Origin: an uncultured delta proteobacterium
GTDB taxonomy: Bacteria; Myxococcota_A; Polyangia; Polyangiales; Polyangiaceae
DNA length: 64,000 bases
Assembly (NCBI GenBank): GCA_963782055.1
Contig: CAWAIF010000003.1
Span: 2,528,001-2,592,000, forward strand
Reading direction: 5' to 3'
The notes under the pieces: generated by a model
What the model was told of the DNA's origin: nothing
The model's input: only the letters and a program-made list of their open reading frames with translations
The model's database searches: none
Made by a program: the position numbers and the translations under genes
Shown: positions 3,632 to 48,980 of the stretch, one piece after another
How positions within the stretch are numbered: the stretch's first letter is position 1
Layout: each line of letters opens with the position of its first letter

Positions 3632-3669
3632 GGCCTCAGAGTAGCCCGGATGCGACATCGCATCCAAGC

Positions 3670-3710
3670 GGGGTCGGGGTTGGGGCTGGGGCTGGGGTCG
3701 GGGTCGGGGG
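3670..3710. repeat. GGGGTC/GGGGCT hexamer tandem repeat
   Basis: Read directly. Confidence 0.85.
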
Positions 3711-3757
3711 GTTGAACTCGGGGGGACATGCTCGTCGCGCCCAGGGAATGGGCGGAC

Positions 3758-3901
3758 GCGAGGGGTCGCGTCTTGGTCGGTCACGCCTTTGCGCGCAGGA
3801 TTCCTGCCAGCGCTGGGCGCGGTGTGTGCACGATGCACGTATCGCACTGTCATGAATCCTGCGCGATGGGGGGCATGACCGACCAAGACACGACCCCTCG
3901 C
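3758..3901 (+). promoter_or_regulatory. Long inverted repeat covering the start codon of the four-helix-bundle gene
   Basis: Arms 3758-3787 and 3872-3901 complementary at 28/30; inner stem CGCGCAGGATTC/GAATCCTGCGCG. Confidence 0.7.
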
Positions 3902-3903
3902 TG

Positions 3904-5419
3904 GTCTCTGCTTAGCGGCCGGAAGACGGCCCGCGGCCCGGGCGTGACGTCGACCGTCGGAGGACTCGCCGGCTAGTGGGCAAAGACAGACGGAGGCGGC
4001 TTGCCGTGGAGGTGACTTTCGTACAGCCCGATGACGAAGCCCCGAAGCGGGAGCTGGCACTTGCGCCGCGTCTGCGTGATGCTCATCCAGTGCGCCAGGG
4101 TGGCGCTGCCGGCGGCCGAGCGCGTTCCGCCGGTCATCGCGCGGTGCCGCCCGTGGGCGCGGATGTCGCGTTCGGTCGCGTTGTTCGTGGCCGGGACGTC
4201 GGGGCGGTCGATGAAGAGCGTCACCCCCACCTTGTGCTCGTCGAGGCGCTCCTGCAGCCGGACGATGTCCGGGAACTCCACGAAGTTGGTGCTGCTGATG
4301 AGATGGCCGAGGCGGATGCGCGCGCCTCGGCGCTGCTCGGGATCGCCGCTCGCCGCGGCGTGCTTGCCCGCGACGTAGAAGCCGATGAGTCGGTCGCGGA
4401 ACTCCTCGGTCGCGGCGCACGGGGTGAGCTCGGCGATCTTCTTGGCCTCGCGGATGGTGTGCGCACCGCAGTAGGCGTGGGTCCAGCCGTCGTGACTCGT
4501 GTACACGCCGTAGAAGTCGGTGCACAGGACTCCTTTGAAGCTCGCGCCGAGCATCGACTCGGCGACCCACGCGCCGCGCGACAGCTCGGCGCGGAAGACC
4601 GAGACGCGGTCGGTGCGCATCAGCCACATCCAACCCGGCACGCCGTCCTGTCGATGGCCGCTCTCGTCGAGGCCCGCCACGGGCGATGCGCGCACCGCGT
4701 CGACCAGCTCGTCGTAGCTCGGCGCCGAGCGGCGTCGCAATCGGTCGAACATCTGCGCCAGGCCGCCGGTCGTGATCGAGATGCCGAGCCACTGTCCGAG
4801 GAACGCACTGATCTTGCCCAGCGGCATGTCGCGCTCGAAGCGCAGGTCCAGCGCCATCGCCTGCACGTTGGGGCCGAACGACACCGCGGCGACGCTCTTG
4901 CCCGCCGCCGGCGCGCCCGGCAGCTTCGCGACCACGCGCTTGTGGCACACCTCGCAGCTGCCGACGTGCGCCACGTGATGCGTCTGCCGCGGCTGCACCA
5001 CTGGGATGTCGGTGACGACTGTGCTGTCCGTCTCGCCCGTCGCCACGACTGCCCCGCCACAGCTGCACGTCGCCGGCATCTCGTGCACGACTTCGTCGTC
5101 GACGTGGGCCGGTGCGGCGGGCCGCGATCCGACATGGCCCACCTTGCGGCCGCGCGGCTTGCCCGAGGGCGCCCGCCGACCCTCGGAGCGCGACGTCCGC
5201 CGCTTCCCGCGCTCCCGGAACCCGCGCTTCCACTCCTCGATCTCCTTGCGCAGCTTCGCCAGCTCTTCGCGAAGCGCGGCGTTCTCCTGCTCCAGCTCCT
5301 GGATCCGCTGCTCGGGCGTCACGTGATCCGGGATGCTCCCGATCAGGTCCCATGGAAAGAACTTCTCGCATCAGGAACGAAGAATGGACCCACAGTGTGC
5401 GACACCGCTAAGCAGACAC
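3904..5419 (-). mobile_element. IS66-family insertion sequence (single-ORF, ISBst12-like)
   Basis: Terminal IRs GTCTCTGCTTAGCGG (3904-3918) and CCGCTAAGCAGACAC (5405-5419), 14/15 match. Target duplication CCTCGCTG (3896-3903) / CCTCGCTC (5420-5427). Confidence 0.85.
3973..5322 (-). CDS. tnpC: IS66-family transposase
   Basis: N-terminal coiled coil, CSCGG...CEVC zinc finger, LDESG, TDFYGVY, CGAHTIRE, TNNATERDIR. Confidence 0.9.
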   Translation of the reverse strand: MTPEQRIQELEQENAALREELAKLRKEIEEWKRGFRERGKRRTSRSEGRRAPSGKPRGRKVGHVGSRPAAPAHVDDEVVHEMPATCSCGGAVVATGETDSTVVTDIPVVQPRQTHHVAHVGSCEVCHKRVVAKLPGAPAAGKSVAAVSFGPNVQAMALDLRFERDMPLGKISAFLGQWLGISITTGGLAQMFDRLRRRSAPSYDELVDAVRASPVAGLDESGHRQDGVPGWMWLMRTDRVSVFRAELSRGAWVAESMLGASFKGVLCTDFYGVYTSHDGWTHAYCGAHTIREAKKIAELTPCAATEEFRDRLIGFYVAGKHAAASGDPEQRRGARIRLGHLISSTNFVEFPDIVRLQERLDEHKVGVTLFIDRPDVPATNNATERDIRAHGRHRAMTGGTRSAAGSATLAHWMSITQTRRKCQLPLRGFVIGLYESHLHGKPPPSVFAH

Positions 5420-5776
5420 CCTCGCTCTCTTCCTCATCACAAGCTGGTGGCCTATCGGGTCGCGGTGGAGCTGCTCGTCGCGGTGCGGGCGGCTGGCGTG
5501 CGCGACGCGAAGCTGCGCGACGAGGCGATGCGCGCCGCGAAGAGCGCGTGCCTCAACGCGGCGGAGGGCGCGGGACGGGTGACGCGGCGGGACAAGGCGC
5601 GGGCGTTCGCGATCGCGCGAGGCGAGGCAGTCGAGGCGGTGGCTGCGGTGGAGATCGCCGCGGCGGCCGGCGAAGCGGACGTCGCTGCGGCCGCGCGGTG
5701 CGTGCGCATCGCTGATCGACTCGTGGCGCTGCTCACCGGCCTCACCCGGTGACACGCTCGCTCGCGCCTTCGCTCA

Positions 5777-5950
5777 CGCCCACGCGCCCGCGCTCGCCCA
5801 CGCGCCCGCGCTCGCCCACGCGCCCGCGCTCGCCCACGCGCCCGCGCCCGCGCTCGCGGCACCTGGGCTGGGGCGAGGGTCGGGGTCGGGGTCGGGGTCG
5901 GGGCTGGGGTCGGGGCCTGGGAGTGGGACTGGGGGCTGGGGTTGGGGCTT
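5777..5950. repeat. 18-mer CGCCCACGCGCCCGCGCT x~4 followed by GGGGTC/GGGGCT hexamer array, between convergent four-helix-bundle genes
   Basis: Read directly. Confidence 0.85.
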
Positions 5951-6012
5951 CTTGGGACAGCCCTGCGCGATGGCGGAAGCCGGCGGCGTGCCGGCTCCCG
6001 CGCATCGCCCGC

Positions 6013-6336
6013 TCAGTGGCCGCCGACCAGACGCACCAGGGTGCCGAGCACGTGATCGAACCGCCCGCGCAGCTCGGGGTCGAGCTCGTCGACGTACCCG
6101 AGCGCCGAGGCGACCTCGAAACACGAGAGCACCTCGCGCAGCGACCCCAGCGCGTTGTGATAGCGCGCCTTCCGGTTGCGACCCTGCGAGTACATGCCCT
6201 CGCCCACGTTCAGCGGCCCGCTCGCCAGCGCCCTGCGACACTGCCGAGCCAGATCCGGATCGTGCCTCTCGAGCTGCCGCACCATCGGCGCCAGCGCACG
6301 CACCAGTTCGAGCAACACCGGGTAGATTCGAAGCAT
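6013..6336 (-). CDS. Four-helix-bundle (23S rRNA IVS/Avd-like) protein, copy A
   Basis: [11 protein letters not shown]...[20 protein letters not shown]...[29 protein letters not shown]. Confidence 0.85.
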
Positions 6337-6612
6337 CGAGCAACTCCTTGTTCGCGCCCGCGCCCGCTGCGCGGGGGCACCCGCCCAACCCCGCCGCGCG
6401 CAGGAGTCCGCCGAGCCGTGCAGAGCGTAGCGGAGCACGGCGAGCTGCTCGCGGGGTGTCGGGGGCGGTGCCCCCCGACCACGAAGGCGAGCGACAGCGA
6501 GCACCGCCCGGAGCCGCGCGCAGGGCGCGAAGCGCCCGAGCACGGCGAGGACGGCCCCGGCCTTGCGGACTCCGAGCACGGCGGGACGCTGCCCTCCCCC
6601 CGAGCGAGCCCC
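6337..6612 (-). ncRNA. Conserved structured leader of four-helix-bundle gene, copy A (putative)
   Basis: Homologous to 47387-47595 and 48396-48652; nested stems including GGAGTCCGC/GCGGACTCC. Confidence 0.5.
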
Positions 6613-10523: not shown

Positions 10524-10694
10524 TCGCGCGGGGCGCAGGCCCGGCCCCACCGCGCACAGGATCACTGGGGGAGGTGGCGGCGTGCTTCGAGGTCGCCGCG
10601 GCCCTCCGGTACACGGGCGAGATGGACGCGGCGATGCGGCGGCGGTTCGACCACGTGCTCGGCACGGCTGGTCCGGCTCGTCGGCGGTCACTGA
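10524..10694 (+). pseudogene. 3' remnant of a four-helix-bundle gene
   Basis: GSLGEVAACFEVAAALRY...RFDHVLGT, then a +1 frameshift, then LVRLVGGH*, matching the copy A C-terminus. Confidence 0.8.
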
Positions 10695-46972: not shown

Positions 46973-46996
46973 GGGAGGGGAAGGGGGGCCCCTCCT

Positions 46997-47105
46997 GGCG
47001 CCATGCTCGGGCTCGTGCTCGCCTTCTCGCGTGCCGCCCGTGTGTGCATGATGCAAGGATTCCGGCACGCGAGAAGGCTTGCGCGCGAGCCCTGCGCGTG
47101 GCGCC
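46997..47105. other. Long hairpin with a perfect 16-bp core
   Basis: GCCTTCTCGCGTGCCG (47021-47036) / CGGCACGCGAGAAGGC (47063-47078). Confidence 0.65.
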
Positions 47106-47175
47106 TCCTCCCCTCGGTGTCGCGCTCCGCGCGCCACACGGGGAGGATGGTGCGCGATCGGCCACGTGAGAGAAC

Positions 47176-47346
47176 GGGAAGGGGAAAGGGGACGGGGAAG
47201 GGGGACGGGGAAGGGGGACGGGGAAGGGGACGGGGGACGGGGAAGGAGAGGGGCTCTCGCTCGGGGGAGGGGATAGCGATGCACTCCCCACACGCCCTCG
47301 TGCTCGCGCCCGCGCCCGCGCCCGCGCTCGCGCTCGCGCTCGCGCT
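47176..47346. repeat. GGGAAG/GGGACG purine repeats, then CGCGCC/CGCGCT hexamers
   Basis: Read directly. Confidence 0.8.
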
Positions 47347-47386
47347 CCTCCGTTGGCGCGGAAGGTGAAGGGGGAAGGAGCGGGGA

Positions 47387-47595
47387 GGGGGCTGTCGCTC
47401 GGGGGGAGGGGATGGTCCCGCCGTGCTCGGAGCTGTCGAGGCCAGGCCGTGCTCGCCGTCCTCGGGCGCTTCGCGCCCTCCGGGCGGCTGCGCGCGGTGC
47501 GCGCTTCGCGCGCAGCCTCGACAGCTCCTGCGCGCGGCGGGTGTGGGCTTGGGCCCCCCGCGCGCGGTGCGCGGGGCGTTGCCGAGGAGCGCGTG
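47387..47595 (+). ncRNA. Conserved structured leader of four-helix-bundle gene, copy B (putative)
   Basis: Perfect 14-bp stem GGAGCTGTCGAGGC (47429-47442) / GCCTCGACAGCTCC (47515-47528) inside CCCGCCGTGC/GCGCGGCGGG. Confidence 0.55.
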
Positions 47596-47922
47596 ATGAA
47601 CCTTCGAATCTATCCCGTGGTGCTGGAGCTGGTGCGCGAGGTCGGGCCGCGGTTGCGGGAGCTCGGGCGGCACGATCCGGATCTCGCGCGGCAGTGCCGG
47701 CGGGCGCTGGCGAGCGTGCCGCTCAACGTCGCGGAGGGCGCGTACGCGCGCGGGCGAAACAAGCAGGCGCGCTACCACACCGCGCTGGGCTCGCTGCGCG
47801 AGACGCAGGCGTGCTTCGAGGTGGCGGCGGCGCTCGGCTACATGCCGGAGCTGGAGGCGGCGCTCGAGGCGCGCTTCCGGCACGTGCTGGGAACGCTGGT
47901 GCGGCTGGCGGGCGCGCACTGA
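47596..47922 (+). CDS. Four-helix-bundle protein, copy B
   Basis: MNLRIYPVVLEL...[17 protein letters not shown]...GSLRETQACFEV; RBS GAGGAG. Confidence 0.85.
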   Translation: MNLRIYPVVLELVREVGPRLRELGRHDPDLARQCRRALASVPLNVAEGAYARGRNKQARYHTALGSLRETQACFEVAAALGYMPELEAALEARFRHVLGTLVRLAGAH

Positions 47923-47985
47923 GGCCCGGCCGCAGGCCCGGCGGGCGCGATGTCCTGTCTCATCGCGCCCGCCCGGTTCCGGCCA

Positions 47986-48071
47986 CGCGCTCGCGCCCGC
48001 GCTCGCCCTCGCGCTCGCCCCCGCGCCCGCCCTCGCGCTCGCGACCGCCCTCACGCCCCCGCCCCCGCGCC
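47986..48071. repeat. CGCGCT/CGCCCT hexamer-type repeats between convergent copies B and C
   Basis: Read directly. Confidence 0.8.
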
Positions 48072-48395
48072 TCAGCGCGCGACCACGAGGCGGACCAGCG
48101 TGCCGAGCACGTGGTCCACGCGGTCCCGCAGCCCGGCCTCGAGCCCGGGCAAGTAGCCGAGCGCCGCGGCGACCTCGAAGCAGGCCAGCACCTCGCGCAG
48201 CGATCCCTGCGCGGTGTGATACCTCGCCGCGCGATTCCGCCCGCGCGAGTACATCCCCTCGGCCACGTTGAGCGGCGCGCTCGCCAGCGCCCGCCGGCAC
48301 TGGCGCGCGAGATTCGGATCATGCCGCTCGAGCTCCCGCACGAGAGGTGCCAGCGTCCGCACGAGCTCCAGCAACACAGGATAGATACGCAACAT
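48072..48395 (-). CDS. Four-helix-bundle protein, copy C
   Basis: [11 protein letters not shown]...[17 protein letters not shown]...GSLREVLACFEV; RBS AAGGAG. Confidence 0.85.
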   Translation of the reverse strand: MLRIYPVLLELVRTLAPLVRELERHDPNLARQCRRALASAPLNVAEGMYSRGRNRAARYHTAQGSLREVLACFEVAAALGYLPGLEAGLRDRVDHVLGTLVRLVVAR

Positions 48396-48652
48396 CGTTC
48401 GACTCCTTGCATGCGCCCGCGCACCCTCGCGCGGGGGGCGAACGCCCAAGCCCGCCGCGCGCAGGAGTCGGCAAGGCTGCGCGCGGAGCGCGCACCGCGC
48501 GCAGCCGCCCGGAGCCGCGCGCAGGTCGCGCGCCGCGTCCATCGTTCACCGAGGCGCACGCGCGGCCGAGCACGGCGAGGACGGCGAGCACGGCCCGGCC
48601 TTGCCGACTCCGAGCACGGCGGGACGATGACCTCCCCCCCGAGCGAGCCCCC
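48396..48652 (-). ncRNA. Conserved structured leader of four-helix-bundle gene, copy C (putative)
   Basis: Perfect 14-bp stem GGAGTCGGCAAGGC (48464-48477) / GCCTTGCCGACTCC (48598-48611). Confidence 0.55.
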
Positions 48653-48870
48653 TCCTCTCCCGCCCGCGCCCGCGCCCGCGCTCGCCCCCGCGCTCGCCCC
48701 CGCGCCCGCGCCCGCACTCGCGCCCGCGCCCGCGCCCGCGGAGGGGAAAGGGAAAGGAGAAGGGGAAAGGGGAAAGGAGAAGGGGAAGGGGAAAGGAGAA
48801 GGGAGAAGGGAAAGGAGATGGGGAAAGGAGAAGGGGAAGGGAGAAGGGGAAGGGGAAGGGGGGAGGGGAA
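48653..48870. repeat. CGCGCC hexamers, then a ~130-nt GGGAAG/GGAGAA purine tract
   Basis: Read directly. Confidence 0.85.
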
Positions 48871-48980
48871 GCGTGCTTCGAGGTCGCTCCGGCGCTCGGC
48901 TTCATGCCGTGGCTGGGGGCTCGAGGCGCGCGCTCCCACCACATGCTCGAGGCGTCGCCCGGTCTGCCGGTGCTCACGGA
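48871..48980 (+). pseudogene. Degenerate 3' remnant of a four-helix-bundle gene
   Basis: ACFEVAPALGFMP aligns with copy B ACFEVAAALGYMP. Confidence 0.65.

Follow-up and report, generated by a model that had tools for sequence, protein, structure and literature searches.

The 64,000-nucleotide stretch of DNA analysed here (the window) contains three intact genes for small four-helix-bundle proteins, each preceded by a homologous non-coding segment which can be folded into nested stems. The first-pass annotation of this locus took the segments for a structured RNA leader that forms a unit with an Avd-like protein. This raises the question of which strand folds, whether the element is RNA or DNA, what the fold does for the gene behind it and how far it belongs to this protein family.

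Genes and structure of the encoded proteins

Gene A (6013-6336, - strand; 107 aa), gene B (47596-47922, + strand; 108 aa, pI 9.9, Shine-Dalgarno word at 47586-47589) and gene C (48072-48395, - strand; 107 aa, pI 10.3), which converges with B, are intact as annotated and score above the curated cut-offs of both PF05635 and TIGR02436. A protein 99% identical to the product of gene A is encoded elsewhere in the same genome (G000:C3:3701570). Gene D (5420-5752, + strand) represents a second four-helix subfamily and converges with A. Its start is cut off by an IS66 insertion, which also separates it from a leader of a different type (about 3712-3900) that follows a GGGGTC tract (3665-3712). The 3' remnant of a further four-helix-bundle gene is present at 48871-48925 (+ strand). 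The first-pass annotation had overlooked gene D, the hexamer repeats described below and some 20 additional copies elsewhere in this genome. The Pfam model gives 19 matches here and protein C gives 23, and relatives of the protein are present in 22 of the 41 genomes searched, the named ones being mostly Polyangiaceae and other Myxococcota assemblies. A search of viral contigs with one peptide pattern found no relative.

Modelling of protein C yields a four-helix bundle (pLDDT 95.8). Its best structural matches among 48,161 chains are 2RLD (Z 14.8, rmsd 1.8, 104 aligned), 2GSC (Z 14.2, rmsd 1.9, 104 aligned) and Avd, 4DWL (Z 13.3, rmsd 1.9, 103 aligned), while the next unrelated bundle scores Z 11.7; a profile match to 2GSC has an E value of 1.7e-9. 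This structure comparison confirms the fold of the proposed Avd/S23-type family. The S23/23S rRNA IVS proteins and the Avd of DGRs, which goes with the Sp RNA stem-loop, have the same fold and are likewise basic (2GSC, 2RLD, 4DWL). By analogy, nucleic-acid binding is probable for this basic Avd-like protein, and a pentameric state of the family proteins is suggested by 2GSC (five chains per entry) and by Avd. However, identity with Avd is 11%, and the structured neighbour lies upstream here and seems to fold as DNA. A 23S rRNA intervening sequence was rejected, as neither rRNA nor any other Rfam family is found in the window and the flanks are protein genes. A DGR was rejected as well: no DGR-type RT or template/variable repeat pair is found beside the genes, and the RTs nearby are group II introns.

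Predicted folds of the leaders

The leaders are homologous and measure 276 (A), 209 (B) and 257 (C) nt, in line with the 200-280 nt first estimated. Module B (47387-47565) is predicted to fold on the - strand, the template strand of the gene, into a long hairpin. It consists of an outer stem P1, a bubble, a 6-bp P2 (47417-47422 with 47536-47541), a conserved internal loop (47423-47429 with 47528-47535), a 13-bp P3 (47430-47442 with 47515-47527) and inner hairpins with GNA triloops. Module C (48420-48652) is predicted to fold on the + strand, again the template, and so is module A (6337-6612), which has an inner insertion of about 70 nt compared with its twin copy. The stem CCCGCCGTGC/GCGCGGCGGG and the variable GGAG...CTCC stem lie where they had been placed and form in all three predicted folds. 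The outermost stem is predicted in C and A but is absent from the minimum-energy fold of B. Single-sequence folding z-scores are modest for the three leaders (-2.5, -2.2 and -1.4). Nonamers of the type GCCGT(G/C)CTC, thought to number two or three per leader, were counted three times in B and four times in A and in C, and are nested repeats of one internal-loop module. The ribosome-binding site was correctly placed just outside the fold: a Shine-Dalgarno-like word is present within 20 nt upstream of the start codon in 139 of 140 leaders.

Conservation and covariation of the helix

Comparison across genomes shows that the leader structure is real and well conserved. Of 191 family genes collected, seven were dropped for having less than 120 nt of upstream DNA, and the core is present in 142 of the remaining 184; in a structural scan of this genome it precedes 18 of the family matches. 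The core is built from P2 (6 bp), a fixed internal loop in which GTGCTCG faces CTGCGCGC, P3 (13 bp) and an interior that varies. Among the 42 genes that lack it by the anchors used are several visible variants or truncations and about 15 members of subfamilies whose hairpin is shorter and of another kind. In the 104 distinct cores, Watson-Crick pairs fill 591 of 624 cells of P2 (shuffle 0.56) and 1249 of 1352 cells of P3 (shuffle 0.64), the stem that had served row selection. In an alignment of 41 rows drawn from these cores, partly chosen for P3 pairing, double changes occur at 17 of the 25 pairs of the helix, and 0 of 500 shuffles reached the score. In this alignment 95.4% of 1025 cells are paired, against 71.9% after shuffling and 30-48% with the partners slid.

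To remove the selection effect on P3, metagenomes and viral contigs were searched with a pattern in which conserved letters alone were prescribed and all scored P2 and variable P3 positions were left free. This motif-first set has at least 125 matches. Among the matches listed, 599 of 708 P2 cells are paired (shuffle 0.53), and so are 545 of 708 cells belonging to the six variable pairs of P3 (shuffle 0.48). The earlier remark that the stem varies in sequence yet keeps pairing thus holds across genomes, with covariation far beyond chance. Support for the outer stem in the larger sets is modest: it forms in 56 of 140 gene-first leaders (shuffled mean 32, maximum 41) and in 88 of 116 motif-first matches among those listed (63 shuffled). 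Rfam 15 has no match in the window, in six relative loci or in the 20 of 125 motif-first loci compared with it. At least five module matches, among those listed, lie in viral contigs, and a phage collection searched with one module locus gave no match.

Strand and chemical nature of the fold

A helix that forms in sense RNA is expected to keep G·U pairs and to purge A·C. Among the motif-first matches listed (118 distinct), sense G·T occurs 9 times against 113 for A·C, and pyrimidine pairs outnumber purine pairs by 131 to 19. After clustering of the listed matches (76 clusters), the non-pattern positions show 4 G·T against 68 A·C, over most columns. As this pattern is opposite to the expectation for sense RNA, folding of the antisense strand is favoured. 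Transcription-linked deamination would shift the mismatch balance the opposite way. If the leaders of four-helix genes are taken by themselves, the asymmetry is weak (22 G·T against 40 A·C; 15 against 24 in 58 clusters), and the phylum-wide set has 3 G·T against 6 A·C. The internal loop also keeps a U·G pair on the sense strand in 37 of 41 rows, which counts against antisense folding.

The interior loops provide a second line of evidence. Sense C(TNC)G, which is antisense C(GNA)G, prevails by 137 against 10 of 208 triloops in the gene-first set, and antisense C(GNA)G by 85 against 3 of 176 triloops among the motif-first matches listed; the terminator loop control had 15 triloops only. C-T-N-C-G words stand in triloop register 156 times, in UNCG tetraloop register once and in neither 121 times, so the interior loops are triloops and not misread UNCG tetraloops. 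C(GNA)G mini-hairpins are a DNA motif that is much weaker as RNA, and GNA mini-hairpins are known from phage ssDNA origins and N4 ssDNA promoters (PMC13037366). In addition, one inner hairpin alternates Watson-Crick pairs with pairs that are tandem G·A on the antisense strand only (34, against 0 on the sense strand). Folding energy does not discriminate between the strands, antisense being more stable in 47 of 104 cores as DNA and in 35 of 104 as RNA. The kinds of mismatch, the register of the loops and the tandem G·A pairs thus favour antisense-strand DNA folding over the structured RNA leader first proposed, and the element is probably DNA rather than RNA.

In the alternative explanation, a structured 5' RNA of the sense strand would bind the Avd-like pentamer, for autoregulation or as an RNP. 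The place of the leader 5' of the ribosome-binding site would suit such a role, and RNA energies slightly favour the sense strand (69 of 104). Avd binds its RNA stem-loop through a flipped-out U and G (bioRxiv 2023.10.23.563531), and the sense internal loop has an unpaired U. Against it stands the triloop rather than UNCG register of the loops, together with the evidence given below from the other strand and from the insertion sequences.

Promoter-like boxes on the template strand

On the antisense strand, the 3' arm of the helix has a TTGAC-like -35 hexamer inside the duplex, followed after 16 nt by N-A-N-N-N-T. The predicted boxes of B (- strand) are TCGACA (47434-47439), which lies within the P3 duplex, and 16 nt away GACCAT (47412-47417), with A-11 and T-7 just outside P2. 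Those of C are TTGCCG (48601-48606) and GACGAT (48623-48628) and those of A are TTGCGG (6563-6568) and GACGCT (6585-6590), all on the + strand. Both A-11 and T-7 are present in 123 of 125 gene-first leaders, in 104 of 121 motif-first matches among those listed (the positions being outside the search pattern) and in 27 of 28 matches of a third, phylum-wide set (301 genomes of the phylum), while everything around them varies. The other arm, taken as a control at any of eight offsets, reaches at most 3 of 124 in the gene-first set and at most 9 of 120 among the motif-first matches listed. No comparable -10 is present on the coding strand.

P2 ends at -12 and the -10 core would be unpaired at the fork; the outer stem encloses a bubble some 10-15 nt long, and the start codon lies 31-73 nt beyond the helix. 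In duplex DNA the boxes point away from the gene and they face it only when the strand is folded. The spacer is 16 and not 17 nt, and T at -12 is rare (21%). Judged from these sequence features, it appears reasonably likely that the leader is a single-stranded-DNA promoter of the four-helix-bundle gene, with the hairpin on the template DNA strand.

The boxes would also form an ordinary outward-facing dsDNA promoter. In an explanation built on this, the promoter would fire outward from the gene and the inverted repeat would be a cruciform or operator regulating it. The antisense linear sequence does read -35, 16 nt, -10, and IS ends often carry outward promoter halves. Junction promoters are also mentioned for IS elements (bioRxiv 2024.04.26.591405). 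However, the transcript would enter a repeat tract with no gene, the helix ends exactly at -12, and a cruciform or operator predicts neither strand asymmetry nor freely covarying arms 25-143 nt apart. We regard this explanation as very unlikely.

Promoters that work on single-stranded DNA have been described from the leading regions of plasmids, namely Frpo1 and Frpo2 of F, ssi1-3 of ColIb-P9 and classes 1-3 of pESBL (PMC9849209, PMC11541004, PMC12672017), and such promoters are inactive in duplex form (PMC12672017). The module shares with the Frpo/ssi type a long template-strand hairpin upstream of a gene and boxes which face the gene only when folded, in the module by prediction. The same layout is seen in the hairpin upstream of klcA in F, where a paired TTGCAT, 15 nt and TAAGAT at the bubble lie on the 3' arm of the template strand, the -35 and -10 boxes being assigned in this analysis from the sequence. 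The pESBL homologue is assigned to the class 2 ssDNA promoters, and its start has been mapped (PMC12672017). In Frpo1 and Frpo2 of F, in contrast, the box spacing of the module was not seen under the search used. A model of the module run on F 50000-67500 did not find the F promoters (best E 0.75), and the two module arms were never found together in the Frpo/ssi table of PMC11541004, as far as its searchable supplement files go. Furthermore, the module is located in chromosomal multi-copy cassettes and beside IS transposases, whereas Frpo/ssi occur within the leading region next to oriT. The module may therefore be called Frpo-like by geometry, and it would fall outside the described classes by sequence (F and the PMC11541004 table) and by location.

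Association with insertion sequences

Within Myxococcota, a four-helix gene follows 26 of 28 motif-first matches, which fits the first-pass view, and also the sense-RNA explanation, of a leader and protein that belong together. Outside the phylum the core mostly adjoins transposases without a four-helix gene. Among the metagenome and viral matches listed, such a gene follows 4 of 110. The leader is thus not specific to the Avd-like protein and, outside the phylum, the module family, although without a match in Rfam, is largely unlinked to four-helix genes, which goes part of the way to refuting the first-pass view.

The neighbours of 85 of the 125 motif-first loci were scanned, the other 40 being too short, by taking the two longest open stretches per side, and their categories were tallied by hand. 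An IS transposase gene adjoins the module in 38 of the 85 scanned loci among the matches listed, with IS110 in 24, IS21 (IstB) in 7, IS3 in 4 and ISL3 in 3. Ten further loci among those listed have a serine recombinase, an AAA_25 helicase or other transposase domains, and any mobile-element gene stands beside the module in 48 of 85. At the listed IS110 loci the transposase lies upstream and co-oriented in 18 and converges with the module in 6. A shared word is present 84-112 nt past the module in 17 of 117 matches among those listed, after which 16 different flanks follow, and it occurs in 7 of the 18 listed IS110-upstream loci. This word looks like a putative IS right end, with the module inside the element. 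For ISAzs32, similarity with the other copies of IS110 ends before the module is reached, so the module is not always inside an IS110 element. The IS110, IS21, IS3 and ISL3 families form circles (bioRxiv 2023.06.07.543989).

The position of the module, between the transposase stop and, in those 7 of 18 listed loci, the putative right-end word, resembles that of the seekRNA or bridge RNA region of IS1111/IS110, and IS1111-type elements keep a non-coding seekRNA downstream of the transposase (bioRxiv 2024.04.26.591405). A sense RNA as considered above would, beside IS110, be part of such a seek or bridge RNA. However, the same 18 IS110-upstream loci, among the matches listed, show sense G·U 0 times against 21 for A·C, mismatches which favour the opposite strand. 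The module is also common to IS21, IS3, ISL3 and the four-helix cassettes, which have no guide RNA. The protein gene is missing downstream in 106 of the 110 metagenome matches listed, Rfam offers no match, and the promoter boxes of the opposite strand are left unexplained by a sense RNA. Taken together, we consider a functional sense RNA, whether beside four-helix genes or IS110, quite unlikely.

Organization of the cassette

In this genome, the module, the gene and hexamer repeats make up a cassette that is present in about 20 copies dispersed over the largest contig. GC skew on the main contig is too irregular to assess replichore bias. A search of sequencing runs gave no RNA run and one DNA run, with a share of 0.06. 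The B/C cassette is inserted between the chromosomal genes gspN and btpA, which here are 2.16 kb apart. At this one site examined, 6 of 6 congeners lack the cassette and have the two genes within about 170 nt of each other. The left hexamer tracts of the cassette (47175-47386), first purine-rich ones of GGGGAA type and after them GCGCCC-type ones, contain a truncated copy of the 5' end of the leader near 47251-47300, and a GCGCCC-type tract lies between the stop codons of B and C (47985-48071). The right tracts (48656-48870), GCGCCC-type and then GGGGAA/AGGAGA-type, have the same orientation as the left ones. Tracts of hexamer type also lie between genes D and A (5753-6012). A near-identical B/C pair is present elsewhere in the genome, and the likeness extends to the tracts on both sides. 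The junctions of the cassette fall within repeat tracts, and no target duplication apart from these is seen. The genome also has collapsed and broken copies, the collapsed pairs consisting of two inverted leader ends between repeat tracts (G000:C3:4157150-4157800).

The association with repeats is general. Tandem repeats are found within 200 nt of 100 of 133 leaders, compared with 30 of 2000 random pieces; 94 of them are hexamers, and their units are genome-specific. The possibility that the leader is the template of the repeats was rejected, as the units differ between genomes and the 5' word of the leader is, by eye, constant. Convergent pairs include 74 of the 191 family genes and head-to-head pairs none. 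Tract orientation was scored in 21 of 37 pairs, the other 16 being not scorable; of the 21, 16 have direct flanking tracts, 0 have inverted ones and 5 are ambiguous.

The suggestion of a mobile element stands in so far as leader and gene travel together as a multi-copy inserted cassette; the RT or HUH transposase expected to accompany it was not found. The genome has 13 RVT_1 matches. Three of these lie near family genes and are ORFs of group II introns in a recombinase/IS91 composite, while the others include eight with one identical score and one weak match. Y1_Tnp (PF01797) has 0 matches in this 97% complete genome (G000), and a RAYT partner was rejected on this ground. IS91 Y2_Tnp gives 20 profile matches here and has matches in 29 of 41 genomes. 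It was not found in G005 and G019 (98-100% complete), which both bear leaders, and IS91 was consequently rejected as mobilising partner.

A further explanation has to be weighed here, in which the hairpin is a ssDNA recognition end or target, similar to those of REP/REPIN or IS200/IS605, of a transposase acting in trans, and the promoter-like letters are a protein site or a by-product. The window has a gene-less dispersed repeat (46975-47160, + strand; 48 copies of at least 120 nt in the genome, 40-48 by scan) with the same internal-loop module, and the two inverted leader ends left by collapsed pairs would be expected of such ends. IS genes stand on either side of the module and in either direction, and the ISAzs32 boundary would also agree. 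The cassette resembles REP/REPIN-RAYT systems in its dispersed intergenic palindromes, inverted pairs, gene-less relatives and likely folding as ssDNA, but it is much longer, carries a cargo gene, promoter-like boxes and hexamer tracts, and comes without a Y1 transposase in this genome. Apart from the distribution of Y1_Tnp and Y2_Tnp, two observations speak against this explanation. The -35 box and T-7, both of which the leaders keep, are missing from the gene-less family, and chance would hardly produce the -35/16/-10 spacing so exactly in each of three independent sets. We hold it to be unlikely.

Returning to a single-stranded-DNA promoter as the preferred reading of the leader, we infer more weakly that the cassette as a whole may be a small enzyme-less mobile element with a single-stranded stage. 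That it moves between direct repeat tracts through this stage is conceivable, though we give the idea less than even weight.

Model for expression from an exposed strand

Our analysis suggests how such a promoter could work. The template strand would become exposed as incoming transferred DNA, as a displaced strand or in a gap, the source being a matter of inference, and would fold into a mimic of an open promoter. Housekeeping RNA polymerase could then bind this fold, which would offer it a fork-junction or pre-melted promoter, use the other arm of the hairpin as template and run into the ribosome-binding site and the gene. The sense RNA would encode the basic four-helix protein and could also prime second-strand synthesis, and the promoter would shut once the duplex is restored. 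In the convergent pair B/C there is one module per strand, so that one gene would fire whichever strand is exposed.

A broader and more doubtful proposal is that the module represents a widely shared, undescribed class of RNA-polymerase-dependent single-strand promoters or origins of chromosomal mobile DNA. The circle-forming IS110, IS21, IS3 and ISL3 elements might rely on it both for priming their single-stranded intermediates and for expressing them. The four-helix cassettes might be minimal enzyme-less elements which move between short tandem repeats via a single-stranded stage, the paired genes covering both strands. Our full-text literature search, in which most subscription journals and bioRxiv supplements were outside coverage, found no paper on the module or on repeat-flanked four-helix cassettes; PMC5524665 gives no more than the gene name.

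Single-strand promoters have so far been described from plasmid leading regions and phage origins. If the proposal is true, the module would extend them to transposition, and would offer a possible explanation of what primes the displaced strand of a copy-out circle and of how expression of its genes begins. PF05635, a large unexplained family, would gain a testable trigger, the exposure of single-stranded DNA, and a link to bacterial short tandem repeats. The module itself is small, about 90-180 nt.

Gene-less repeat and rearranged cassettes

A dispersed palindromic family which carries no gene has a member in the window at 46975-47160. This family is represented by 48 copies of at least 120 nt in the source genome and is weakly present in congeners too. 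Its stems covary, its internal-loop module is the same as that in the leaders of the four-helix genes, and a frequent position of the repeat is immediately 3' of a stop codon.

In a collapsed cassette (G000:C3:4157150-4157800, on contig C3 of the source genome), the gene is absent and two leader 5' ends, inverted, are fused between repeat tracts. A truncated leader end resembling those of this cassette is located at 47251-47300 of the window. Isolated 3' remnants of four-helix genes are present at window positions 10559-10670 and 48871-48925, both starting near residue 64-72, and the ends of other broken copies in the genome lie near the same point. At G000:C3:6974719-6975772 the entire cassette is duplicated in tandem, head-to-tail; the repeat tract flanks the pair on both sides and also separates the two copies.

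Gene D and other four-helix subfamilies

Gene D, with its leader and tract (window 3665-5752), represents a second four-helix subfamily. The leader is structured and of its own type, unlike the module, and a GGGGTC tract is also present. An IS66 insertion lies directly past the start codon of gene D; copies that look intact are found at G000:C3:3700609 and on contig C2. Further subfamilies show, instead of the module, a simple long hairpin enclosing the ribosome-binding site (partner genes at loci L082-L086, L090, L093, L094, L097, L099 and L100).

Module and mobile elements

The hairpin module also accompanies a group of IS110-family elements (L185, L189, L192, L197, L199, L200, L210, L226, L243, L253, L266, L270, L274, L282, L287, L295 and L297), which have a putative right-end word in common and in which a guide RNA was not located. 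A second conserved block, seen with this group, is present in 64 of the 121 listed motif-first matches to the module. At L219, L236 and L240 the module has a lytic transglycosylase gene on one side and an S26 peptidase gene on the other, a pair typical of conjugation modules.

A composite that joins a tyrosine recombinase to an IS91-type transposase and a group II intron, the intron carrying an inserted IS4-like element, is found at three places (G000:C3:6184000-6189500, 5212500-5217700 and 2270000-2274200), each at a distance of 1-7 kb from a four-helix gene or remnant. Several C-type genes are followed at their 3' side by a palindromic repeat of ~20 nt, in two tandem copies (G000:C3:2486400, 6183820, 3737490 and 1820590).
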